Source: an uncultured Oscillospiraceae bacterium | GTDB taxonomy: Bacteria; Bacillota; Clostridia; Christensenellales; Aristaeellaceae | Direction of reading: 5' to 3' | Length of the DNA: 64,000 nucleotides | NCBI GenBank assembly: GCA_964408185.1 | Contig: CAYOYK010000007.1 | Span: 4,232 to 68,231, forward strand | In this document: positions 52,660 through 64,000 of the stretch, piece after piece | How the letters are laid out: each line of letters opens with the position of its first letter | Position numbering within the stretch: position 1 is the stretch's first letter | Translations under genes and position numbers: made by a program | The notes under the pieces: generated by a model | What the model saw: the letters and a program-made list of their open reading frames with translations, nothing else | Told to the model about the DNA's origin: nothing | The model's database searches: none

Positions 52660-53840
52660 GCTTGCTCGGCGCGGTCAAGGCGCCGCTTCGCGCCGCGCGC
52701 AACGCCTACTATCGGCGCTGGCCCGCGCTGCGCCGCGCCCTGACCGGACGGCGGCGTATATTGCTGTACGTCAACAACCAAGCCATGTCGTCGCATATCT
52801 GGCGGTACTATGAGTGCGTGCAGGATGAGCGCGGCCTCGATTTTTCCTTGTACGAGCCGGAGGGCGCGCTGACCAACGCCGCCGCCGACGTGTTTGAGCA
52901 AAACGTCGCCGCGAGCCGCATCCGCCGCTGCAAGCATCCGGGCTTCGTCGCGTGGGATCTGATCGTCTGCGCGGATATGCGAACCCCCGCCAGCTTTACG
53001 CGGGAGATGACGCCCCTGCTGTACGTCAACCATGGCCTGCACATCGTCTCCATGGATGGCGGCGCGCGCCTGTACTGCTATGGGGACAGCGCGCTGGATG
53101 AGCGCGGGCAGCCCAAGTTTACGCGCATGCTGGAAAGCAACCGGCACATCGTCCGGGAAATGGCGACATTCGATCCTCGCTTCGCGCCGCGCATCGTGTG
53201 GTCGGGCTTCAAGTTTGCGGGCAGCATCGCGGACGCGGTCGCCGCCCGCGCGGAAATCCGCCGCCGGATGGGCGTGCCGGAAAACGTCTGCCTCGTAGGC
53301 TTTTTTGGCACGTGGCGGGAGCACAGCCTGTTCCACGCGCTGGGCCCCGGCTTGTTTGACGCGTGCGAGGCGCTGCGGCCGGAGGGCTATCAATTCCTGT
53401 TTTCCATCCATCCCAAGGAGTATGGTCGGTACGCCCCGGATATCGAGCCGATGGGCGAGTTGGTGGAGAGCCAGCGCGCGCGCGGCATGCTGGTGCGCAG
53501 CCCCGGCGAGCCCTTCGAGCCCGCCATGGCCGCCTGCGATATCGTCGTGTCCGATTACAGCTCCATGGCCGAGAGCGCGATCATCGCCGGGCGAAAGCTG
53601 GTCTTCAGCCCGTACCCGGACGGCATGGTTTGGAAGCGCAGCCTCACCGCCGAGGCGCGGCGCGCGCTGCCCACGCTGCCGGACGTATCGCGCCTGCGCG
53701 AGGTGCTGGACGCGGTACGCGCCGCGCCGCTTGATCCGTTCATCGCAGACGCTCGGCTTCAGCTCGTCCGCGCCGATCACGACCAAGTCGTCCGCGACGT
53801 GACGCGCGAGCTGCTGCAAAAGGAGGCGCGCCGTGCCTGA
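52656..53840 (+). CDS. CDP-glycerol glycerophosphotransferase-like (TagB/TagF family) protein
   Basis: Internal ATG at 52656 (ATGA overlap). The C-terminal block CDIVVSDYSSMAESAI resembles the TagF-family ITDYSS motif. The assignment is tentative. Confidence 0.55.
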   Translation: MSLLGAVKAPLRAARNAYYRRWPALRRALTGRRRILLYVNNQAMSSHIWRYYECVQDERGLDFSLYEPEGALTNAAADVFEQNVAASRIRRCKHPGFVAWDLIVCADMRTPASFTREMTPLLYVNHGLHIVSMDGGARLYCYGDSALDERGQPKFTRMLESNRHIVREMATFDPRFAPRIVWSGFKFAGSIADAVAARAEIRRRMGVPENVCLVGFFGTWREHSLFHALGPGLFDACEALRPEGYQFLFSIHPKEYGRYAPDIEPMGELVESQRARGMLVRSPGEPFEPAMAACDIVVSDYSSMAESAIIAGRKLVFSPYPDGMVWKRSLTAEARRALPTLPDVSRLREVLDAVRAAPLDPFIADARLQLVRADHDQVVRDVTRELLQKEARRA

Positions 53841-55434
53841 CGCTTCCCGCACGCGCAACAGCGCGCGCAACGCCACCATGAGCCTGCTCACGCAGGCGCT
53901 CGGCCTGCTGCTCTCCTTTGCGGGGCGGCTTGTATTCGTGCGCACGCTGGGCGAGGAATACTTGGGCATCTCCGGCTGGTTCAGCAACATCCTCAGCATC
54001 CTCAGCATCAGCGAGCTTGGCATCGGCACGGCCATTGTGGTCAGCCTGTACAAGCCGCTTGCCTCCGGCAACGAGGGCCGCATCCGCGCGAGCATCCGGC
54101 TGCTCCGACGCGCGTACTACTGTGTGGGCGCGGCGGTGCTGACGCTTGGCCTGTGCCTGCTGCCCTTCTTGGACGTGCTGGTCAACAAGCAGACCGAGCT
54201 GGTCGATCTGCGCGTCTGCTATTTGCTGTTCCTGAGCCAATCCGTGTTCAGCTATCTGTTTTGCGGCTACAAGACGGCCATCTTCACCGCCGATCAGCGC
54301 CAGAGCCGCGTCAACCTGATCCAGTGCGTCGTCAACGCGGCGGTCACGCTCTGCCAGATCGTGACGCTGCTGCTGTGGCGCAACTACTACCTGTACGTCG
54401 TCTATTTGGTGGCGGGAGCCGCGCTCAAAAACCTGCTCGTCGCCGCCAGCGCCAACCGGGAGTATCCCTACCTGCGCCATGTCACGCGCCTGCGCCCGGA
54501 GGAGGACGATAGGGCGTTGCTGCCCACGGCGGAGCGAAAGGGCATCTTTCACAACCTGTTTGGGCTAAGCCTCTACCGCTTGAGCGGCACGGTGCTCAAC
54601 GCCACGGACAACTTGGTGCTGGGCAAATGGATCGGCTTTGCGATCATAGGCGTGTACAGCAACTATCTGCTGGTCATTACCGCGCTGACCACCATGTTCC
54701 AGCTCGTGTTCCAGAGCTTTACGGCCAGCGTGGGCAACCTCAACGTCACGGAATCCTCGGAGCGCAAGGCGTTTGTGTTCCGCTGCCTGAACCAGCTGGA
54801 CGGCTGGCTGTACGGCTTTGCGGCGGTTTGCCTTTTGGTGCTCATCGATCCGTTTATTACGCTGGTTTTTGGCCCCGAATGGGTCTTTGCCGACGCGTGG
54901 GTAACGCCGATCATCGCGCTCAACTTCCTGACCAGCGGCCTGCTGGAAACCACCATCATGTACAAGGACGCGTGCGGGCTGTTCTGGCAGGGCCGCTTTC
55001 GGCCTGTGTTCTCCGCAGGGCTGAACATCGTGCTGTCCATCTGGTGGGTGGGGCCGTGGGGGATCGCGGGCGTGCTGGCCGCCACCATCGTCAGTCGGCT
55101 GCTCACCACATGGTGGTTTGACCCGTGGATGGTGCATCATTACGCGCTGAAAACAAGCTGCAAGGGGTACTTCCTGCGCACGCTCGCCGTTGTGGGCGTA
55201 TTTGCCGCGCTGGGCGCGGGCCTGACGCTTCTGCGCAACGCCCTCTTCCCGATGGATTCCCTTCCCGGCTTTTTGGCAATGATGTTGCTTTGCGCCACGA
55301 TCCCCAACGCGGCGTTCTACCTGATGTATCGGCGCACGCCGGAGTTTGCCTACACGCTGCGCACGGCCAAGGGACTGCTGGGCCGCGTGCTGCATAAGGC
55401 CAAGCGTCCGGACGAAGCCGACCAAGACGCCTGA
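53833..55434 (+). CDS. polysaccharide/teichoic-acid flippase (Wzx/MOP superfamily)
   Basis: 533 aa, about 14 TM. The N-terminus (ARNATMSLLTQALGLLLSF..R..FVRTLG.EYLG) is typical of polysaccharide biosynthesis exporters. It overlaps the previous gene by 8 nt. Confidence 0.8.
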   Translation: MPDASRTRNSARNATMSLLTQALGLLLSFAGRLVFVRTLGEEYLGISGWFSNILSILSISELGIGTAIVVSLYKPLASGNEGRIRASIRLLRRAYYCVGAAVLTLGLCLLPFLDVLVNKQTELVDLRVCYLLFLSQSVFSYLFCGYKTAIFTADQRQSRVNLIQCVVNAAVTLCQIVTLLLWRNYYLYVVYLVAGAALKNLLVAASANREYPYLRHVTRLRPEEDDRALLPTAERKGIFHNLFGLSLYRLSGTVLNATDNLVLGKWIGFAIIGVYSNYLLVITALTTMFQLVFQSFTASVGNLNVTESSERKAFVFRCLNQLDGWLYGFAAVCLLVLIDPFITLVFGPEWVFADAWVTPIIALNFLTSGLLETTIMYKDACGLFWQGRFRPVFSAGLNIVLSIWWVGPWGIAGVLAATIVSRLLTTWWFDPWMVHHYALKTSCKGYFLRTLAVVGVFAALGAGLTLLRNALFPMDSLPGFLAMMLLCATIPNAAFYLMYRRTPEFAYTLRTAKGLLGRVLHKAKRPDEADQDA

Positions 55435-56046: not shown

Positions 56047-56598
56047 TCACCAGCCCGTCGTCAGAACAAGCTCGTAATGCTCGCCGTCCGCAATGGGCGT
56101 GGCGTCCGCGCCCGTGGTGAGCATCTCCCCGCTCCGGGTGACGCACCACCATTGCTGCAACGCGGTATCGGCGGTAACGCCGTTCACCGTTTGGATAAAC
56201 AGGCCGTAGGTCGAGCTTTCCCCCTGCGCAAGCCCTGTGTTTACCAGCAGCGCCCCCAGCGTCTCCTCGTCGGTGCGGTACACAAACTCCTTCGGGTCGC
56301 TCTGGCCGTCGTCCACGCTGATGGTCACGGCCTTGCTCCCGACCTGCGTCTGCGGCTTCAAAGCCAGCCACAGCCCTCCAAAGGCGAACACCAGCGCGCA
56401 CAGGATGCACAGCGCCGCGATGACGGCTCGCTTGCCGCCCGATTGACGCTTGGGGGCCTCGGCCTCCGCCGCTTTGTTTTCCGCCGCCGCGTCGGTTACG
56501 ATGGGCTCGTCCGCCTGCTTGCGTTCCGCAGGGTTGTTCTCCGTGGTGCTGTTCTCCGCAGGGTTGTTTTCCGTGTGCTTGTTCTCCATGCTCATCAT
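56047..56598 (-). CDS. DUF4430-like (transcobalamin-like) membrane-anchored binding protein
   Basis: 183 aa. Low-complexity N-terminus, one TM, then a beta-rich domain ending WWCVTRSGEML..GADATPIADGEHYELV, which is typical of DUF4430. Confidence 0.65.
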   Translation of the reverse strand: MMSMENKHTENNPAENSTTENNPAERKQADEPIVTDAAAENKAAEAEAPKRQSGGKRAVIAALCILCALVFAFGGLWLALKPQTQVGSKAVTISVDDGQSDPKEFVYRTDEETLGALLVNTGLAQGESSTYGLFIQTVNGVTADTALQQWWCVTRSGEMLTTGADATPIADGEHYELVLTTGW

Positions 56599-56619
56599 CC
56601 CTTCTCTTTGCTCGCATCA

Positions 56620-56890
56620 GAGTAAGAGAAACGCCCTCCCGCTAACGCAGGGGGGCGACGCGAAGCAGGGCCGCCGTATGGGCGAGCCTGCTGCCGGGCC
56701 TAGCCAAATCCTCGTGGCGGCCCCGCGGTTCTCCGGGTAAGTCTTCTGGCTTGCGGATCGACGCGCGCTCCCGCCTTCCCATGCCGGTGGCACAGTGGCG
56801 GCCAGTTGCCTGTTGGAGCGCGCTCCCCGCTGACAGCGACGGGTTCGCGCAGGTCTTGCACCTGCTTCCTTATTGAGCCCTTGCGGGCGC
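56620..56890 (-). promoter_or_regulatory. cobalamin (B12) riboswitch
   Basis: The minus-strand leader reads AAGGAAGCAGGTGCAAGACCTGCGCGAACCCGTCGCTGTCAGCGGGGAGCG ... GCCGCCACTGTGCC ... AAGCCAGAAGACTTACCC. These match the conserved GGAAGC-GGTG-AA-CC core, the CCCGCCACTGT-like segment and the B12 box (AGCCAGGAGACCTGCC-like). The genes downstream are of B12-uptake type. Confidence 0.6.
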
Positions 56891-56918
56891 CCGGAGCCCT
56901 TCCTTTGATTGCGGCGCA

Positions 56919-56947
56919 AGTATAGCACAGTGCGCGGCTTTTTGCAA
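56919..56947 (-). promoter_or_regulatory. sigma-A-type promoter candidate driving the riboswitch leader
   Basis: Minus strand: TTGCAA, a 17-nt spacer, then TATACT preceded by TGc. Confidence 0.5.
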
Positions 56948-57027
56948 CGGCGGCGAGGCAGGCAGGAAAAAAGGGTTCGCGGTCGAATATCAATAAATAC
57001 CCCTTTATGCGAATGAGGTGATCGTCC

Positions 57028-59169
57028 ATGATCCGACGCGGTGCGCATACCGGCAAACGCCTGACGCTTGCGCTTTTGCTGTGCCTTTGTGCGGCGCTGC
57101 TTTGCGGCTGCGCCGTTTGGGAGCTGGAGGGGGAGACGACCTCGTCCGTGCCCAACCTGTCCCTGCTCCGGCCGGGCGCGTATATCGATCAGGACGACGG
57201 CCGAGGGGACGTCGCGTCCGAGGGCGCGTACTACCGCGTGGATCTGTGGCTGGACGCGTCCCAGAACATGGGCGGCGTAAACCCAAGCGACGTATCCATT
57301 TACCCGCACCGCAACCGCAACTACCGGGAGGGCGGCTTCCACTATCAGGATGAGAAGCAAAAGCCGTGGTATGAGTCCGTGCTGATGGATTTGACGATGG
57401 CGACGGGCGATAAGCAGGTGCGCGTCCTCCGCTATGGCAACGAGGTGCTTGCGGATGATTATCTGCTGGGCGCGGGCCTTGCGGATCCGGGCGCAACGGA
57501 GGAAAAGCTGGCCTCGCTCCGCCGGGACTTGATGACCTACGCGCTTTCGCCCACGGCAGACGATTTTGCCGCGATGTCCTGCGAGGATATGTCCGTCAGC
57601 TTTTACGGGCTGGGCACGCCGATGCTCAATCAAATGGCCCGCTTTGCCGATACCGACGGCGCCGCGCTGGAAAACCCCGGCATGGTGGGGGCCATGTCCG
57701 ACGCGCTGGACGCGCAGATATCGGCGATAGCGGCGGACGAGGGTCTTCGGCGCGGCTTTTTGATCGATCACGACAGCGATGCGTATTCGTGCCCGCTGAT
57801 GTACGCCCTTCAGCAGATGGACTTTGGCCGCCTCAACATCGTGGTGGCGGACACGGCCTCTATCCGCCGCCTGAGCGGCATGGACGATCAGGGGCAAGGG
57901 ATCGCTTACTACGAGGAGCTCTTCCGCGACGCGGGGCTGATGACCGATCGCGGCCTGTCCGTGGGGCTGATGGCGCTCCGGCTGGACTACATGGGGCAGA
58001 TCAGCTCCATCTGCTCGGCGGATCTGGCCGAGCCGCTCGTTTGGGGAAAGCCGCAGCCGGATAATAGCAGCAATACCATTCAGCTTGGCGTGATGCCGCG
58101 GGAGTTGCTGGTGCTTGTCATCGGCCCGCAGGCGGACGTGGAGGCCTACATGGGCGACCTGAGCCATCGGCTTGATACGGACGAGAGTCTGCAGGGCGAG
58201 CGCGGCCCGGAGGAGAAAAAGCGCCTCGTCTACGCCCGCGACGGCCAGACGCTGTACAGCGAGCGCTTCACATTCGATTATGAAACGGCGATTCTTACCC
58301 CGCCTACGCTGGGCTACTATACGCAAAACACCCCGGACGTCGTGCTGGCCGCCTCCGACGAAAGCGAGTGGACGCGCCGCAACGGCTTGGATACCGTGGT
58401 GCTTGCGCCCGACGCGGACGGGAAGCAGGCCGACCGCACGCTGACCGTCACGCTGCCCATCCGCGCCGAGAGCTACATGCGCCTCGCGGAGCTGACCGCC
58501 GCGCAAAACGGCGATATTACCGTGCGCAGCTCGCTTACGCTGGTCGACAGCCTAGCCAACACGCCCGATAGCGCTTACCAGCCGTCGGACGACGAGCAAT
58601 GCGTCACCCTGCGGGATACCGTCTACGTCTATCGCCATGAGGAGCTGCCCTTTGAGGATTCGCCGTCCAAGTCGCCCTTTACGCTGGTCGGCCTATCGGT
58701 GGACGAGCTTGAAACGCAGCTGACGCTTACCGTTCGGGTGGACGGCGACAAGCTGGCCGAGGGCTACTATCGCCTGCAGCTCGCGGTGGATGTGCCCGGC
58801 GTGGTGACGCGCTGGCCGTCCATTCCGTGGATTGACGGCTATCTGAACAGCGATGCGGGCCTGACGGACGACGGGAGCCTCAACGCCGATGTGACCGCGG
58901 ACGACGTATATCGCTGGGAGACCTTTGCGGAGGCTGTCGCGCGCACCGAGCGCCAGCGCACCTATATTGTGGAACAGTTCCGGCACGCGTGGGGCAAGTA
59001 TAACGAGCGCCCCTACGACGGCATGGCCATCCCGGACTGCCCGCCCGTAGAGAAGCTCCTGCAGGCGCGCGATCTCATCAATCAGCTTCGCGCGGCCGCT
59101 ACGCAGGAGACGCAGCCCTATGTGCGCTTTACGCTGGATGTGTTCGCGGATAACCGCACCGAGCCGTAA
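57028..59169 (+). CDS. large extracytoplasmic lipoprotein, possible degenerate vWA-like N-terminal domain (function unknown)
   Basis: 713 aa. RBS GAGGTG. The signal peptide ends in LLCGC (lipobox-like). The strand YRVDLWLDASQNMGG resembles a vWA beta1/MIDAS segment with the last Ser replaced. I recognise no other motif. Confidence 0.7.
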   Translation: MIRRGAHTGKRLTLALLLCLCAALLCGCAVWELEGETTSSVPNLSLLRPGAYIDQDDGRGDVASEGAYYRVDLWLDASQNMGGVNPSDVSIYPHRNRNYREGGFHYQDEKQKPWYESVLMDLTMATGDKQVRVLRYGNEVLADDYLLGAGLADPGATEEKLASLRRDLMTYALSPTADDFAAMSCEDMSVSFYGLGTPMLNQMARFADTDGAALENPGMVGAMSDALDAQISAIAADEGLRRGFLIDHDSDAYSCPLMYALQQMDFGRLNIVVADTASIRRLSGMDDQGQGIAYYEELFRDAGLMTDRGLSVGLMALRLDYMGQISSICSADLAEPLVWGKPQPDNSSNTIQLGVMPRELLVLVIGPQADVEAYMGDLSHRLDTDESLQGERGPEEKKRLVYARDGQTLYSERFTFDYETAILTPPTLGYYTQNTPDVVLAASDESEWTRRNGLDTVVLAPDADGKQADRTLTVTLPIRAESYMRLAELTAAQNGDITVRSSLTLVDSLANTPDSAYQPSDDEQCVTLRDTVYVYRHEELPFEDSPSKSPFTLVGLSVDELETQLTLTVRVDGDKLAEGYYRLQLAVDVPGVVTRWPSIPWIDGYLNSDAGLTDDGSLNADVTADDVYRWETFAEAVARTERQRTYIVEQFRHAWGKYNERPYDGMAIPDCPPVEKLLQARDLINQLRAAATQETQPYVRFTLDVFADNRTEP

Positions 59170-59187
59170 GGCGGAAAGGAGCCCGCA

Positions 59188-59841
59188 TTGAGCCAGATTT
59201 CCATCAACCGTTCGTCCGACCTGCCGCAAAGGCCGAGGATCAAGTATCACAGCCGCCTGAAGGTGCTGCTGTGCTATCTGCTGTGCTGGGGGACGGCCGC
59301 GCTGCTTGTTTACGCGGCCCTGCGGTGGGTGTTTCCCTATAAGCTGGTGGGCACGTCGCCGGATATCCTGAGCAACCTGACGCAGGCGTTTCCTTTCCTG
59401 CGCAAGCCGCTGGCAGAGGCTGCCGCGACGCTGCAAACCGGGGCGCAGGCAAGCGCGGCGGCGATCGCGCGCGCCATGGCCCTGCGGGATCTGTACTGGC
59501 GGCAGTTTGTCGGCGGCTGTGTCGGCGTGGCCATGACGGTGAGCCTGCTCATCCAACTGGGCTGGCGCATGTCGTTTGTGCGCGTTCGTCACCCCAGCCG
59601 CGCCGCGCGCCGGGCGGTACGCTCGTACCATCTGCTCATGACCGTGATCGTGCTTTTGAACGCGGGCGTTGCGCTGTTTTTGTTCCTGACGGGCGTGCGG
59701 TTCATTGCGGACAGGAATGTCTGGGATTACGCGGTGTACTTTGGCGGCTTTGCGCTCACCGTCGCCGCCTCGGCCCTGTGCTTCCGGCTGGCCGCGCCGC
59801 CCACGCTGTCGGGATATCGGGCGTTCTTCAGGCGGCTGTAA
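59188..59841 (+). CDS. 4-TM membrane protein (function unknown)
   Basis: 217 aa. TTG start 6 nt after AAAGGAG and 18 nt after the lipoprotein stop. Four hydrophobic segments. Confidence 0.6.
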   Translation: MSQISINRSSDLPQRPRIKYHSRLKVLLCYLLCWGTAALLVYAALRWVFPYKLVGTSPDILSNLTQAFPFLRKPLAEAAATLQTGAQASAAAIARAMALRDLYWRQFVGGCVGVAMTVSLLIQLGWRMSFVRVRHPSRAARRAVRSYHLLMTVIVLLNAGVALFLFLTGVRFIADRNVWDYAVYFGGFALTVAASALCFRLAAPPTLSGYRAFFRRL

Positions 59842-59867
59842 TCATCCATCAGAAAGGGGGCCGCGCC

Positions 59868-61970
59868 ATGGGCTGCTATGTGATCGCCGTCGGCGGCACG
59901 GGCAACAAGGTCATGGAGAGCATCGTGTACGGCGCTTGCGCCGATGCTTTTTATTCCATGGACGAGGAGGGCCGCCGCGTGCCCGTGCCGGAGATCCACC
60001 TGCTGGCGGTGGATGTGGACGCGGCCTGCGGCAACACCACGCGCGCGCGGCAGGCCTGCGAGCAGTACGAGGCCGTTCGCGCGGCGCTCCGACGTGCGGA
60101 GGCGGACGCGCAGGGCTTCCATACCCGCCTGATCGTGGATAAATGGAACATGAACCTCTCCCGCCGCGCCACCAGCGTGGAGCAGCAGGTTCGCAATCAC
60201 AAGAAGGATCAGCTCCTCGCGCGCACGCTCTTTAACAAGACCGAGGCGTCGCTGGAATACTCCGAGGGCTTTCGGGGGCATCCCGACCTCGGCATATTGT
60301 TCTTTTCCGAGCTGCTTAACGGCGTGGACGCCGCCGCGGCCGCCGGTCAGCCCGATGAAATGGCGGACTTTATGGCGCGCATCGAGCGGGATATGGAGCG
60401 CGGCGAGACAGCGTCCGTCGTGCTGTGCGGGTCGATTTTTGGCGGCACGGGCGCGAGCGGCATCCCGGCCATCTCGCAGTTCCTGCGCGAGCGCTTTCGT
60501 TCCTACGGGCCCAAGCTCGTGCTTGCCGCAACGCTGATGCTGCCCTACTACAAGGTGCCGCCCTCCGCGCAGAACGAGGAGCTGGAGATCGTCGTCAAGA
60601 GCTCTGCGTTCCTTGATAAAGCGCGCACCGCCCTTTCGTACTATGGCATGGAGGGCATGATCCGTCAGGACGAGAACGATCAGAACGGCGTGTATGACGC
60701 GATCTACCTCTTGGGCATGCCGCAGGAGGCCTTTGTGACCACGCGCCTGTACTCCACCGGCTCGCAAAGTCAGGAGAACGACGCGCATATTCTGGAGTGG
60801 CTGGCAATGCGCTGCGTGGCCCGGTTTTTCCGCACGGGCTTTCGCGGCGCGCAGAGCCATCAGATCGATTGCTACTACTACCAAATGCACGAGCGCGCGT
60901 TTTCGTGGGACAGCTTTGACGACGAGGCGGAGCTGTACCGCACGGGCTTTGGCGGCCTGATGAAGGCCGGGGCGACCTACGTGAGCGAGTGCTACCCCTA
61001 CCTGCGCGGTCGCATCAAGGGCGATGTGCGGGGCCGCCGCAATTTGGTCAACTACGATACCGCGTATTTCAGCTGCCTGCGCAGCCTCACCGTCGCGCAG
61101 CGCGCCACCCTCGAAAAGAGCATGGATTCCCTCTACCGCCTGCTCGTGTTCTATTGCAACTGGATGTGCCAGATCCTGCGGACGCTGCCGCCCAACCTGC
61201 GCAAGGTCAGCCCGGCCGAGCAGCGCCGGCAGGAGGCTGTGGAGAACTACGCACGCCTTTGCGAGCAAGCCGCCGCCTGCGCTCTGGCCGATCCGGCCGA
61301 TCGTCTGGCCGCCGCGCAGGGCGAGCTGGTTCTGCGCGCGCTGGAAAGCAAGCAGGAGGCCTACGCGCGCGAGCTGGGCGGCCTTGCCCAGCTGGAGATC
61401 CTTCAGAACGCGCGCACGCGGCTGGAGGGCCGGGCAGTCCAGCAGCGCATGGCCATCGAGGCGCTGCAACGCCGGATCGAGCAGGGCTTGGACGAGGACG
61501 GTGGCGCGCTGGACGAGCAGTCGCTTGTAATGGAAAACCGCCGCTTGGACGGCATGCGGGACGCGCTTGCCCGCGTGGCCAAGCAGGCCGAGCGCGTCGC
61601 CGAGGATGTCCGCGCCGCCGTTACGGACGATATTGCCGCCCGCTATCCCGCGCCCAAGCAGGAGAAAGCCGCGCTGCTGCCGGAGAACGAGCTGTTTGAC
61701 GCGCGGCTCGCATCCCAGCTTTACGAGTTGCTGCGCATCAGCGGCCAGCCGCGCGAGGAGCGCAACCTGCGCCGCTACGAGCTGCTGTGCGATTCCATCC
61801 AGGCGGGCATGGGCCGGCTGATTGTCCACCGCGTGCCGGATACGGTCGCAATGTCGCAAATTGTCGCCGGGCTGGGCGGCGGGCGCTATCAGGGCGCGGA
61901 CCCGCAGGCGGCGGTCGGCACATTCTTCGCGCAGCTTTTGGGCGCGGTGCTGGAGGAGGATTCCCTATGA
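59868..61970 (+). CDS. divergent tubulin/FtsZ-superfamily-like GTPase with C-terminal coiled coil
   Basis: Internal ATG at 59868 (RBS AGAAAGGGGG) of ORF 59778-61970. YVIAVGGTGNKV at the N-terminus. GFRGHPDLGILFF. VVLCGSIFGGTGASGIP (nt 60441-60461 encode GGTGASG; compare the tubulin/FtsZ signature GGGTG[ST]G). About 150 aa of Ala/Arg/Glu/Gln/Leu-rich helical sequence near the C-terminus. Confidence 0.7.
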   Translation: MGCYVIAVGGTGNKVMESIVYGACADAFYSMDEEGRRVPVPEIHLLAVDVDAACGNTTRARQACEQYEAVRAALRRAEADAQGFHTRLIVDKWNMNLSRRATSVEQQVRNHKKDQLLARTLFNKTEASLEYSEGFRGHPDLGILFFSELLNGVDAAAAAGQPDEMADFMARIERDMERGETASVVLCGSIFGGTGASGIPAISQFLRERFRSYGPKLVLAATLMLPYYKVPPSAQNEELEIVVKSSAFLDKARTALSYYGMEGMIRQDENDQNGVYDAIYLLGMPQEAFVTTRLYSTGSQSQENDAHILEWLAMRCVARFFRTGFRGAQSHQIDCYYYQMHERAFSWDSFDDEAELYRTGFGGLMKAGATYVSECYPYLRGRIKGDVRGRRNLVNYDTAYFSCLRSLTVAQRATLEKSMDSLYRLLVFYCNWMCQILRTLPPNLRKVSPAEQRRQEAVENYARLCEQAAACALADPADRLAAAQGELVLRALESKQEAYARELGGLAQLEILQNARTRLEGRAVQQRMAIEALQRRIEQGLDEDGGALDEQSLVMENRRLDGMRDALARVAKQAERVAEDVRAAVTDDIAARYPAPKQEKAALLPENELFDARLASQLYELLRISGQPREERNLRRYELLCDSIQAGMGRLIVHRVPDTVAMSQIVAGLGGGRYQGADPQAAVGTFFAQLLGAVLEEDSL

Positions 61971-64000
61971 AACGAAAGGCAAACCGCCGCGCGCCGGGCG
62001 TAAACAGCCCGCAGGGCAAGCAGGAGCTGGATCGGCAGACCTCCTACCAAACGCTGCTGCCCGCCATGGGCGAGGGCTTCCATCTGGGCTATCACACGCT
62101 GCCCGGCATTGTGAGCGATCAGAACCAAAAGCCCCACGAATGGCTGGAAAACGTGGCGCGCTTTATGCTTACGCAGGGCGAGGAGGTCGGCTATTCCATC
62201 CCGGACGTGCTGGCCGGAGAGCAGCAGATGAAGCGCCTGATTCGCTTGCCCTACGAGGACGCCATGCGCCATCAGGAAATGCTGGATTGGCGCGGCATTC
62301 TGGCTGTGCTTCTGCTTTGGGACAGCTGGGAGCAGGACGAAACTTGGCCGATCCTCTCCTACGAGGATTTTCTTACGCCGGAGAGCATGACCACTGCCAT
62401 GGCCTTTCAGCGCGCGGTGGCGATGTCGCTCACCCCGGAGCGCGCGGCGGACGGCCTCAAGGTGTTCTCGCTGGTCAGCCAGCGCGAGCAGGTGCCCGAT
62501 AAACGCCCGCTTTGCATGGCGTCGCGCAGCGTGGTCATCATGCCCGCCGCCAACCCCGGCGATTTGGACGATGTGCTGCCCGATCGCATCCGCTGGTATA
62601 ATCGCGCGCGCAAGCGCTTTGAGGATCCCTGCGATTTTTTGGAGGAGGAGGATCGCGCGCGGCTGGTGGCGCAGCTCCGGCTGCTTCAGCGCCTCAACGA
62701 GGAGGAGAGCTACCACAGCGCGATCTATGCCAAGGACGCGCCGCTCATCAGCCTGCTGGACCGTTTCATCGACGATCTGCTCGGCTTCCGCATGAGCTGG
62801 CGCGAGCGCATCGAGGGCGGAGACCCGCAGGCGGAGCGCGAGCTGCGCGGCCGCGTGCTGGCGGTTTACGGAGGCATGGCGGAGCGCGATGAGCGCGCCA
62901 TCGCCGCAATCGCCTGCGAGGAGCAGCTTTTGGACGCGCGGGAGCTATCCGCCAATCCGCTCATCGCCGCGCTGCTCACCCAGCCGCTGCCTGCCGACGG
63001 CGTGCTCACGGATACACGGCACACGGTGTACACCTATCAGGGCGCGCCCTTTGCGCGCTCCTCAGGCGCGTATTTGCTGGAGCCCGCCAACCATCCCGAT
63101 GAGGATCGCACGTTTGCGCTTGTGGAGCAGGAGGTAGCCGTCTTTCAGGGCTATTCCTGCGCGTGGAACCAGCGCACGGCCGCGCGCCTCAACGCGCTGG
63201 CGGCGGAGCTTGCCCCGCGCGTGGGCGCGAGCCATCGCGTATGCGACCTGCTGCGGCGCTGGAGTCGGGAGTTGGCCGCGTATCCGACCTCGTGCGACCA
63301 GCGCATCGAGCTGAGCTACCCGATCGAGGGCCCCACCGGGTCGCTGACGCGCCTAATGGAGGACACGCTGGGGTTGCCCTGCGCGGAGGACGCTTTTTCG
63401 GACTGTCTGCTGACGGTTGACTGCCCGGAAGCCCCGCCGTTTGAGGATCCCTCGCTTAGCACGCACTGCCGCGTGGAGGGGATGGACGATGGATGCTACG
63501 CCGTGCCGCCGCTTTCCGCGGCCATGGCGCAATGGCTGCTGACGGAATGCGATCAGGGCGGCGAGAACGCCGCGTGGCTTGAGCCGGATTCCTTCCGTTT
63601 TACGCGCGTTGATACGGAGCGAGGCCCCGCGATCCGCGCCGAGTTTGAGGTCAAGCGTCAAACGCCGGCCGAGGACGCGCTGATCACCAACACGGTGGTT
63701 TTCCGCCGCGAGTATCTGCTGCCCGCGCCGGACGCGCGTCTCACGGCGGCCGGCATGGTCATGCGCGTCTCCGGGGAGGCGCTGCCTTACGTGGTCTCGT
63801 GGCCCAACGTGCATATTGCGCCGGAGCTTTGGCGGCGCTACTACGTGTACGCGCATCGGCCGCAGAATCTCGACGTGTGGGTCTACCGCGACGGCGCGTG
63901 GCAGCAGGGCCTGTATCGCCGCGTGTCCGAGCTGGACGAGGCCCTCGGCACGGAAAGAACGCGCGTGTGGCGCACCGCCGTCACCGAGACGTATCCGGCG
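61967..64000 (+). CDS. large hypothetical cytoplasmic protein (3' end outside window)
   Basis: This gene is not in the ORF track because it has no stop in the window. I translated from ATG 61967 (ATGA overlap with the previous stop) and found 678 codons open to base 64000, with coding-like composition (MKRKANRRAPGVNSPQGKQELDRQTSYQTLL...). No TM and no motif I recognise. Confidence 0.75.
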   Translation, partial: MKRKANRRAPGVNSPQGKQELDRQTSYQTLLPAMGEGFHLGYHTLPGIVSDQNQKPHEWLENVARFMLTQGEEVGYSIPDVLAGEQQMKRLIRLPYEDAMRHQEMLDWRGILAVLLLWDSWEQDETWPILSYEDFLTPESMTTAMAFQRAVAMSLTPERAADGLKVFSLVSQREQVPDKRPLCMASRSVVIMPAANPGDLDDVLPDRIRWYNRARKRFEDPCDFLEEEDRARLVAQLRLLQRLNEEESYHSAIYAKDAPLISLLDRFIDDLLGFRMSWRERIEGGDPQAERELRGRVLAVYGGMAERDERAIAAIACEEQLLDARELSANPLIAALLTQPLPADGVLTDTRHTVYTYQGAPFARSSGAYLLEPANHPDEDRTFALVEQEVAVFQGYSCAWNQRTAARLNALAAELAPRVGASHRVCDLLRRWSRELAAYPTSCDQRIELSYPIEGPTGSLTRLMEDTLGLPCAEDAFSDCLLTVDCPEAPPFEDPSLSTHCRVEGMDDGCYAVPPLSAAMAQWLLTECDQGGENAAWLEPDSFRFTRVDTERGPAIRAEFEVKRQTPAEDALITNTVVFRREYLLPAPDARLTAAGMVMRVSGEALPYVVSWPNVHIAPELWRRYYVYAHRPQNLDVWVYRDGAWQQGLYRRVSELDEALGTERTRVWRTAVTETYPA

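Follow-up and report, generated by a model that had tools for sequence, protein, structure and literature searches.

The window analyzed here, a stretch of 64,000 nucleotides of contig CAYOYK010000007.1 from an uncultured Oscillospiraceae bacterium, ends within an operon of four genes (g1 to g4 hereafter), which raises the question of what task could bring together a divergent relative of tubulin and FtsZ (g3), a predicted surface lipoprotein (g1), a small polytopic membrane protein (g2), and a giant cytoplasmic protein (g4). Our answer, which we regard as plausible without calling it probable, is that the four genes encode one membrane-anchored complex whose cytoplasmic engine is a pair of nucleoside triphosphatases (NTPases) of cytoskeletal superfamilies, in the manner of FtsZ and FtsA. 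It is built on the structure, coupling, and limits of the operon, on its conservation, on the family to which the sequence assigns g3, on the modeled fold of g4, on a g1 for which no known fold was recognized, and on the topology of the components.

The preliminary description of this DNA had proposed g3 as a divergent tubulin/FtsZ protein of the Tubulin_2 type, calling attention to two glycine loops, GGTGNK and GGTGASG. Scanned with the Pfam profiles, the g3 query matched PF13809 (Tubulin_2) along residues 6-306 with an E-value of 3.4e-4 (20.4 bits, gathering cut-off 27) and PF00091 along residues 166-211, the T4 region, with an E-value of 1.1e-4 (22.9 bits, cut-off 33). When 31 diverse members of the g3 family were scanned singly, PF13809 was detected in all 31 (best E-value 1.8e-8) and PF00091 in 15 (best 1e-6), which bears out the proposal at the level of the family, the query alone staying below threshold. 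The detectable homologs of g3 number 166 and are mostly proteins from metagenome-assembled genomes (MAGs) of Clostridia, e.g., Candidatus Limiplasma; a precomputed PF13809 match is found on most of them and a few bear the name "tubulin-like domain-containing protein". Both loops are present, as counterparts of the T1 loop (GxGxxG type) and the T4 signature (GGGTG[ST]G) of the tubulin/FtsZ superfamily, and their glycines are invariant or nearly so across the family. Together with a T3-like loop between them, they run in the order T1, T3-like, T4, which is that of FtsZ. In the T1-type loop, G9, G10, and G12 do not vary across phyla and K14 hardly does, in agreement with the "GLGGTG" form that Makarova and Koonin (2010; PMC2875224) show for FtsZl1 in their supplementary alignment. 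The T3-like loop keeps G134, F135, G137, and G142 invariant across phyla and P139 nearly so, and aligns in hhalign with "GAGANPEVG" of FtsZ, an alignment that is not significant alone. The T4 signature is the most constant of the three, being invariant from G188 to A196 in 16 sequences from at least five lineages. Approximately 105 residues past T4, another invariant motif, G298-x3-Q302-x-N304-x2-H307, was observed, for which hhalign gave no alignment with T7 of FtsZ; the T7 "synergy" loop (NxDxxD/E) completes the GTPase site of the neighboring subunit in a filament. No transmembrane (TM) segment was detected in g3 by hydropathy. By its sequence, g3 is classified as a divergent member of Pfam Tubulin_2, i.e., of the FtsZl1 superfamily.

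The long coiled coil attributed to g3 at the outset stands for the query, in which an alpha-helical insertion separates the core from the C-terminal ~50 residues, but not as a trait of the family: the insertion belongs only to forms of ~700 aa and is a gap in the 530-550-aa forms of the same clade as well as in all distant orthologs of ~500 aa. In profile searches of the PDB, its only matches were designed helical bundles and ATP-synthase b stalks, with E-values of 0.5-10. The C-terminal segment, in contrast to the insertion, is conserved in all forms. It exhibits a conserved D658, an "AGLGGG" stretch near G671, F686, and L690; this stretch was spuriously paired with the FtsZ T4 loop by hhalign. 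The layout of core, variable linker, and C-terminal segment recalls the core, linker, and C-terminal peptide of FtsZ.

For g4, the preliminary description had seen a cytoplasmic protein of more than 678 aa and no recognizable domain. The cytoplasmic location stands, no credible TM segment being found by hydropathy, and the length proved to be 1241 aa, but the protein does carry a domain. The full-length query produced no Pfam match even at an E-value of 10, and its 68 homologs are all unannotated; the part of the sequence lying beyond the window, however, displayed motifs of the actin/Hsp70 type when inspected by eye. An AlphaFold2 model of residues 42-1241 (predicted local distance difference test, pLDDT, 86.9; predicted template modeling score, pTM, 0.77) was compared with the PDB by Foldseek, and the best 50 matches were all actin-fold (ASKHA) ATPases, whose fold has two RNase-H-like lobes, mainly MreB, nucleotide-binding domains of Hsp70, and actins, with E-values of ~1e-6, probability 1.0, target template modeling scores of 0.39-0.58, and 450-510 aligned columns; 306 matches had E<=1e-3. 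The sequence motifs of this fold were recovered in 19 orthologs from several phyla with the following residues invariant: D712, G714, and T718 in phosphate-1 (AIDFGSIATTV), E906 and A909 in connect-1 (ENQADG), D930, G932, and D937 in phosphate-2 (LDIGGSTTD), and G1082 in the adenosine motif (AGNGGQ). The Pfam matches of the same 19 orthologs were MreB_Mbl (11), FtsA (6), EutA (2), and Ppx-GppA (1), all of them ASKHA families, and the best MreB_Mbl score was that of the Anaerovibrio ortholog (29.7 bits, gathering cut-off 27). Additionally, the g4 family profile touched a Ppx exopolyphosphatase structure at the phosphate-2 motif in the PDB profile search (E-value 0.05), and hhalign against Escherichia coli FtsA covered the phosphate-2 motif only (probability 34%). 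As modeled, the C-terminal domain of g4 is an actin/MreB/Hsp70-type ATPase with an intact predicted nucleotide site. The actin fold reaches the C-terminus of g4, so that no Hsp70 substrate-binding domain comes after it, and the operon gave no Pfam match to HSP70, DnaJ, or GrpE. The N-terminal ~650 residues are modeled as a mixed alpha/beta part followed by a large beta-rich region, with residues ~25-270 conserved across phyla. Given the actin-fold ATPase in g4, the unit would hold a tubulin-like and an actin-like protein as a pair.

Whether these genes belong together was examined by scanning one genome per GTDB species for the exact T4 peptide, which yielded 443 relatives of g3, the best 80 loci being taken further. 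In the ~55 closely related species (loci L002-L056, annotated as Limiplasma, Egerieenecus, Eubacteriales, Christensenellaceae, and similar, i.e., Christensenellales-type), g1-g2-g3-g4 are colinear wherever the contig reaches far enough. The tubulin-like gene is followed by a g4 ortholog in 19 of the 24 distant loci, and the five exceptions are contigs ending less than ~3 kb downstream; the co-occurrence that had been suggested as a check is thereby answered positively. The distant lineages comprise Spyradocola, Christensenella, Catabacter, Anaerovibrio and Selenomonadaceae, Gloeobacterales, Nostoc, Thermosynechococcus, Arthrospira, Chlorobiaceae, and Acidobacteriota, and the core of small membrane protein, tubulin-like protein, and actin-fold giant turns up again in Negativicutes, Cyanobacteria, Acidobacteriota, and Chlorobiaceae. 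A g1-family gene adjoins the core in 16 of the 24 distant loci. The most populous 90%-identity clusters of the three larger proteins are alike in size, with 1795 (g1), 1578 (g3), and 1467 (g4) member sequences, and no match was found in 50,697 phage records. The additions to the module are lineage-specific: coiled-coil proteins are encoded downstream of the core in other phyla, and the partner genes examined there, mostly for coiled-coil proteins, yielded no enzymatic effector domain. In two Spyradocola loci (L057, 16430-20476; L058, 16434-20534), the module is followed by a gene for a coiled-coil protein of 344-349 aa and then by one for a protein of ~1350 aa that carries Sel1 repeats and, at its C-terminus, an NPCBM/NEW2 domain. 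The orientation of the g1-family gene is opposite to that of the core in a plasmid-borne copy of Gloeothece verrucosa PCC 7822 (NC_014503, 37627-47534), where RefSeq names only the tubulin-like protein and leaves its partners as "hypothetical", and in a chromosomal copy of Arthrospira platensis.

The two remaining proteins would place the unit at the membrane. Both assignments of the preliminary description, a 713-aa lipoprotein for g1 and a protein with four TM segments for g2, agree with what we observed. The single hydrophobic segment of g1 spans residues 12-30 behind a positively charged N-terminus and leads into a lipobox, L25-x-G-C28, whose C28 is invariant in 56 sequences, as read from the alignment and hydropathy with no dedicated lipoprotein predictor. 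On these sequence features, g1 is taken as a bacterial lipoprotein and as the extracytoplasmic partner. No Pfam domain was detected in any of its 73 homologs, and an exhaustive profile search of 1.84 billion representative proteins retrieved only 64 relatives. The upstream gene of other phyla, coding for 430-660 aa, is homologous to g1 (hhalign 98.4%, E-value 9e-15), and a profile of the distant family members recovers g1 in 27 of the close loci. The AlphaFold2 model of g1 (pLDDT 89.8, pTM 0.85) shows an alpha/beta N-terminal half and a C-terminal half rich in beta-sandwiches. In Foldseek, it had zero matches at E<=1e-3 in the PDB or BFVD, and its best, non-significant neighbors were adhesin domains of the staphylococcal ClfA/ClfB/SdrG type (probability <=0.25). 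A confident model that significantly matches neither solved structures nor predicted viral ones is of interest in itself. In g2, four TM segments were predicted from hydropathy (residues 26-44, 107-125, 149-167, and 181-199), and the Pfam search revealed no resemblance to any known transporter. In every one of the 55 close loci, the gene is flanked by g1 and g3, and in 18 of the 19 loci of other lineages, the gene directly before the tubulin-like one encodes a multi-TM protein of 156-209 aa.

One feature of g1 suggested a more specific identity. Residues 72-83 resemble the acidic/hydroxyl signature of a metal ion-dependent adhesion site (MIDAS): D72, W74, G82, and G83 are invariant, D76, Q79, and M81 nearly so, and by eye D76-A-S78-Q-N80 together with the later strand "VVAD275" can be set against the MIDAS pattern DxSxS...T...D. 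Distant orthologs exhibit D-x-T-x-S-M-x-G at the same place, with its D, S, M, and G invariant across phyla, and a later "hhhhTDL" strand equivalent to that of D275 in g1. This motif, in combination with the von Willebrand factor A (vWA) partners known from the FtsZl1 literature, led to a vWA test of g1, a check that had also been proposed beforehand. It gave no support: no VWA family was matched at E<=5 in 16 distant orthologs, no VWA was detected in g1 itself or among its 73 homologs, and neither a vWA nor an integrin I-domain stood among the 50 Foldseek matches listed, despite the confident model. With neither a profile nor a structural match, g1 is better described as a fold with no close solved relative than as a demonstrable vWA domain.

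The gene calls and the limits of the operon were examined at the level of the DNA (table 1). The window has a G+C content of 64%, and high-GC DNA tends to yield long spurious open reading frames (ORFs). Four antisense ORFs do overlap g1-g4 on the minus strand (56617-58506, 58693-59631, 59727-61859, and 61889-62716), the longest encoding 629 aa opposite g1 and 710 aa opposite g3. The frames of g1-g4 have a G+C of 82-85% at third codon positions (GC3) and of 44-50% at second positions (GC2), whereas the antisense ORFs show the mirrored composition (GC1 78-84%, GC3 65-70%), which identifies them as shadows of a high-GC coding strand and not as genes. Purine-rich ribosome-binding sites (RBSs) precede all four starts, namely GAGGTGA for the ATG of g1, AAAGGAG for the TTG of g2, GAAAGGGGG for the ATG of g3, and GGAGGAGG for the ATG of g4. 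The exact sequences of all four proteins, including the TTG-started g2 of 217 aa, are present in a public protein collection, and conserved homologs exist for each. The four co-directional genes of the preliminary description thus hold, as does its account of one translationally coupled unit with gaps of 18 nt between g1 and g2 (59170-59187) and 26 nt between g2 and g3 (59842-59867), each downstream gene having its own RBS, and an ATGA overlap at 61967-61970 in which the start codon of g4 runs into the TGA of g3 (61968-61970).

The reading frame of g4 remains open through 678 codons up to the end of the window. A longer Logan contig identical to the window DNA (L001) was used to extend the locus, supplying the rest of g4 and the downstream genes that had been called for. 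The gene ends at window-equivalent position 65692, and 15 nt past its stop codon lies an intrinsic terminator with an 11-bp stem and a T-run, followed by a sigma-70 promoter matching the consensus in 12 of 12 positions (TTGACA-17-TATAAT) and by purE/C/F/M/N. On the other side, a cobalamin riboswitch (96.6 bits) heads an operon on the minus strand that is divergent from g1-g4, as described before, and is not part of the four-gene unit. With this divergent operon upstream and a terminator and new promoter downstream, the transcription unit is delimited to exactly four genes. The riboswitch operon holds two small genes, the first (~56047-56595) with a weak DUF4430 match and the second encoding 176 aa with no Pfam match. 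Upstream of it (53833-55434 on the plus strand and further upstream) lies a polysaccharide-biosynthesis cluster with glycosyltransferase, nucleotidyl-transferase, and racemase genes and a gene for a multi-TM protein of 533 aa with no Pfam match. The flanks of the window operon are polysaccharide, B12, and purine genes, not defense genes; the setting is metabolic, no mobile-element genes were seen around this copy, and the absence of division and partition genes nearby, noted at the outset along with that of FtsA, ZapA, SepF, or TubR partners, agrees with our results. Among relatives, pur genes occur near the operon in six loci in varying orientation; they are the sole recurrent neighbors and uninformative.

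Table 1. Features of the g1-g4 operon and its borders, in window positions except where indicated.
Feature	Position	Strand	Description	Basis
Cobalamin riboswitch	56719..56909	-	Upstream of g1, divergent	Rfam RF00174
g1	57028..59169	+	713-aa predicted lipoprotein; signal peptide and lipobox Cys28	ORF, RBS
MIDAS-like acidic/hydroxyl motif	57241..57276	+	g1 residues 72-83, DLWLDASQNMGG, end of first beta strand	
g2	59188..59841	+	217-aa polytopic membrane protein, TTG start	ORF, RBS
g3	59868..61970	+	700-aa cytoplasmic protein assigned to the tubulin/FtsZ superfamily, Pfam Tubulin_2 (FtsZl1-like) type	
T1-type glycine loop	59892..59909	+	g3 residues 9-14, GGTGNK	
T3-like loop	60267..60293	+	g3 residues 134-142, GFRGHPDLG (G-x-x-G-x-P-x-x-G)	
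T4 signature loop	60429..60461	+	g3 residues 188-198, GSIFGGTGASG	
Alpha-helical/coiled-coil insertion	61230..61802	+	g3 residues ~455-645, between core and C-terminal ~50 residues	
C-terminal segment of g3	61839..61967		g3 residues ~658-700	
g4	61967..64000 in window	+	Giant cytoplasmic partner, residues 1-678 of 1241	
Modeled actin-fold ATPase domain	Just past window end		g4 residues ~700-1241 (C-terminal ~540 aa)	
Terminator and promoter	~65707-65834 (window-equivalent)		Beyond window end; L001 15794-15921	

In the mechanism that we propose, g3 would self-assemble or switch with GTP at the membrane, and the ATP-driven g4 would nucleate, anchor, or remodel it. The four TM segments of g2 would hold the g3-g4 pair at the membrane and link it to g1, which would expose its alpha/beta domain and its adhesin-like beta-sandwich domains on the outer face. 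With g2 as its link to g1 at the wall, such an assembly could coordinate events outside and inside the cell, and would then be the trans-envelope, GTP-driven system that the preliminary description had envisaged. As to its role, colinearity in ~55 species, the similar sizes of the g1, g3, and g4 clusters, the metabolic flanks, and the absence of an effector domain lead us to consider a conserved function in the envelope or in cell organization (membrane or wall remodeling, positioning) in the Christensenellales-type clade slightly more likely than one in immunity.

Several observations weigh against this reading. The physical complex, polymerization, the direction of coupling, and the biological role are what we infer, and the tubulin fold of g3 itself is deduced from sequence, not structure. 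The Pfam scores of the g3 query lie under the gathering cut-offs; PDB profile searches with g3 returned coiled-coil noise, or FtsZ only at an E-value of 9; and when hhalign was run on E. coli FtsZ or on an alignment of 41 FtsZ sequences collected in a metagenome scan, T1, T3, and T4 were colinear at probabilities of 0.7-4% (0.7% for the 41-sequence alignment). These comparisons with FtsZ being non-significant, the tubulin assignment rests on the curated Pfam models and the motifs. The T6-H7-T7 elements and the C-terminal domain are not recognizable in FtsZl1 (Makarova and Koonin 2010), which makes polymerization uncertain. Homology of g2 to the small TM proteins of other phyla was not demonstrable (hhalign 3-52%), so that their equivalence is one of position, and g1-family genes have no place beside the core in several cyanobacterial loci (L066, L074, and L077). 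The module is patchily distributed over the phyla, its flanking genes differ among relatives, copies reside on five cyanobacterial plasmids, two of them mobilizable, and one MAG of Candidatus Limiplasma sp. (JAZKYW01) harbors two paralogous modules, whose g3 proteins share 57% and 43% identity with the query (L035 and L039, respectively). Lastly, in four Acidobacteriota loci (L070, 15620-18131; L072, L078, and L079), the core is followed by a gene for a TM/coiled-coil protein of ~300 aa and then by genes for ZorA-like (E-value 1e-7) and ZorB-like (E-value 1e-17) proteins, a stator pair of the Zorya type, the ZorA-like protein consisting of MotA_ExbB and a long helical tail and the ZorB-like one being of the OmpA/MotB type. 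Patchy spread, plasmid copies, MAG paralogs, and Zorya-like linkage are at least as compatible with an accessory or conflict system, and they make a conflict or defense role nearly as likely as the envelope role.

Seen as a conflict or anti-phage system, the module would survey the envelope: g1 and g2 would sense an insult at the surface and g3 and g4 would form an assembly, thresholded by nucleoside triphosphate (NTP) in the way suggested by Kaur et al. for tubulin and HSP70 components of DO-GTPase systems, that acts as effector or recruits one. Related Tubulin_2 operons have indeed been reread as NTP-dependent conflict systems with multimeric assemblies of tubulin and HSP70 (Kaur, Burroughs, Iyer, and Aravind 2020; PMC7159879), and the scattered and plasmid-borne copies, the two paralogous loci in one MAG, the varying flanks, and the ZorAB-like genes, where the ZorA match includes the tail, all speak for such a role. 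The ZorAB-like genes are, however, restricted to one phylum. No PADLOC model, those for ZorC-G included, and no family of PHROGs or NCBIfam matched any of g1-g4; the core of DO-GTPase, GAP1, and FNIII described by Kaur et al. is absent from an operon of only four genes; no nuclease, protease, NADase, or pore-type effector was found in the operon or in the neighbors examined elsewhere; and the colinearity and matched cluster sizes look like stable inheritance in what is, in the window, a metabolic neighborhood. On balance, we place this explanation on the unlikely side.

We consider it improbable that the operon specifies a switch-and-chaperone device, in which g3 would be a non-polymerizing GTP switch and the g4 ATPase would remodel or translocate a client, e.g., by assembling or secreting g1 or a surface polymer through g2. 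FtsZl1 has no recognizable T7 and C-terminal elements, which FtsZ-type filaments need; one FtsZl1 operon in the accessible part of the published neighborhoods includes a "DnaK (HSP70)" protein of 1626 aa; and nucleotide-binding domains of Hsp70 are among the best structural matches of g4. All of this accords with a chaperone, but g4 lacks the substrate-binding domain and a J-domain or GrpE partner, and its orthologs match MreB_Mbl and FtsA in Pfam, not HSP70. Secretion of a polymer would fit the glycosyltransferase/polysaccharide gene found just upstream of g1 both in the window and in locus L164, and the GT2-like genes near three other loci; against it stand the mere four TM segments of g2, which is like no known transporter, and the fact that this adjacency is not general. 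In L164, the gene (118-1458, GT4/GT1 glycosyltransferase) ends 38 nt before the g1 ortholog, and its recurrence is weak. Farther from our expectation, and in our view very improbable, is an apparatus for adhesion or force transmission across the envelope. The analogy here is the Agl-Glt focal-adhesion motor of Myxococcus, in which the actin MreB is joined with a small GTPase, a MotAB-like stator, and a lipoprotein adhesin at the surface. The parts are alike in kind, as the operon offers a predicted actin-fold protein, a putative GTPase, and an outer lipoprotein whose structural neighbors are, weakly, Gram-positive adhesins, and MotA/OmpA-type stator genes adjoin the core in Acidobacteriota and, as far as the accessible neighborhoods extend, canonical FtsZl1 in Deinococcus and cyanobacteria. 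Nevertheless, the adhesin similarity of g1 is the non-significant one given above, stator genes are lacking in the window operon and in every monoderm locus, no search that was run detected Agl or Glt homology, and gliding is not known from Christensenellales-type gut anaerobes.

Extending the complex of cytoskeletal NTPases beyond the window, we advance with some hesitation the possibility that the module of small TM protein, short Tubulin_2 GTPase, and giant actin-fold ATPase, usually with a g1-family protein, is an ancient undescribed machine common to Clostridia, Negativicutes, Cyanobacteria, Acidobacteriota, and Chlorobiaceae. It would constitute a second partnership between tubulin and actin in bacteria, this one outside the divisome, in which both superfamilies co-assemble on a membrane and are wired to the cell surface, and may do something beyond any known FtsZ/FtsA, MreB, TubZ, or ParM system. 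That one operon unites a tubulin- and actin-superfamily pair with a membrane protein and a surface lipoprotein, and that the arrangement has been kept in organisms as distant as gut Clostridia and cyanobacteria, is of interest also because the Tubulin_2/FtsZl1 family has been unexplained since 2010 and is subject to two competing predictions, membrane remodeling and a conflict system. The compact four-gene form, free of kinases, extra GTPases, and vWA proteins, offers a simple entry point for testing both. It opens the questions of whether g3 polymerizes, whether its actin-fold partner serves as a tether or as a regulator, and what benefit abundant gut anaerobes draw from it.

Among known systems, the operons of FtsZl1 come closest in family. 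Makarova and Koonin (2010) found FtsZl1 encoded alongside vWA proteins, novel GTPases, kinases, and OmpA-like proteins and predicted membrane remodeling by envelope-associated complexes. Like g3, FtsZl1 belongs to Pfam Tubulin_2 and exhibits the T1 "GGTG" and T4 "GGTGxSG" loops, which are separated by inserts particular to the family; in both cases, genes for membrane and extracytoplasmic proteins lie alongside, division and partition loci do not, and in diderms MotA/ExbB-like and OmpA-like genes are linked. The differences are equally clear. FtsZl1 proteins have 760-1200 aa in the accessible part of the published table, whereas the core of the g3 subfamily has ~500 aa; their architecture, which runs from an FtsZ-like domain through an extended coiled coil to an alpha-helical C-terminal domain, contrasts with a coiled coil found only in some g3 members; and their usual partner is a recognizable vWA protein (COG2304), in contrast to an extracytoplasmic partner in which no vWA was detected. 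A short tubulin with an actin-fold partner of ~1100-1250 aa behind it, invariable here, is not listed in the accessible part of their neighborhood table, and the module matches none of the operon types given there for FtsZl1. The idea that long FtsZl1 proteins are fusions of g3 and g4 was not borne out, as the g4 profile had no match to Deinococcus deserti FtsZl1, its C-terminal part included. The g3 profile matched the N-terminal core only of that protein, weakly (E-value 0.0015), and the g1-family profile had no match to the gene upstream of it.

The DO-GTPase/GAP1 systems, as which Kaur et al. (2020) reread such operons, likewise bring together the tubulin and Hsp70/actin superfamilies with membrane or extracellular parts in predicted NTP-dependent assemblies. 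Their tubulin/vWA and HSP70/GrpE themes are described as non-overlapping, whereas in the g1-g4 module the two superfamilies are obligate neighbors. Moreover, these systems are built on one or two DO-GTPase genes of the TRAFAC clade with GAP1, next to FNIII or GASH components, and the window operon holds only g1-g4, which gave no P-loop GTPase or FNIII match in Pfam or NCBIfam, GAP1 having no model in the libraries searched. In Zorya, the resemblance concerns the ZorA-like and ZorB-like genes after the same core in Acidobacteriota, and both genes are missing from the window operon and from every Clostridia locus. TubZ and PhuZ are also divergent bacterial tubulin-superfamily GTPases outside the division machinery, and some g3 relatives are, like them, plasmid-borne; in contrast to TubZ/TubR/tubC, no TubR-like DNA-binding gene is present, and g3 is accompanied by envelope proteins and a giant with a predicted actin fold.

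The paradigm of an obligate bacterial pair of tubulin and actin NTPases is FtsZ-FtsA, and few other cases of such a pairing are known. As in that pair, the genes for a predicted tubulin-superfamily GTPase and a predicted actin-superfamily ATPase are adjacent, and both proteins would be expected to work at the membrane. The weak Pfam FtsA matches of g4 orthologs are a further FtsA-like trait, and a conserved core, variable linker, and conserved C-terminal segment an FtsZ-like one, from which a functional parallel may be drawn. The module departs from FtsZ/FtsA in having no significant sequence similarity beyond the nucleotide loops, a reversed gene order, no dcw-cluster context, and a g4 three times as large as FtsA, with an N-terminal region of ~650 aa. 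The claim that the family is uncharacterized stands as far as experiments are concerned, no experimental function or description of the module being found in the searchable literature, but it needs the qualification that two comparative-genomics papers (PMC2875224 and PMC7159879) discuss Tubulin_2/FtsZl1 systems; in their accessible parts, neither lists this operon architecture, in line with the initial view that it had no assigned function. Lacking DO-GTPase, GAP1, and FNIII components and any match in PADLOC, PHROGs, NCBIfam, or the literature searched, and pairing the two superfamilies obligatorily, the g1-g4 module represents a new architectural variant within a known, uncharacterized family.

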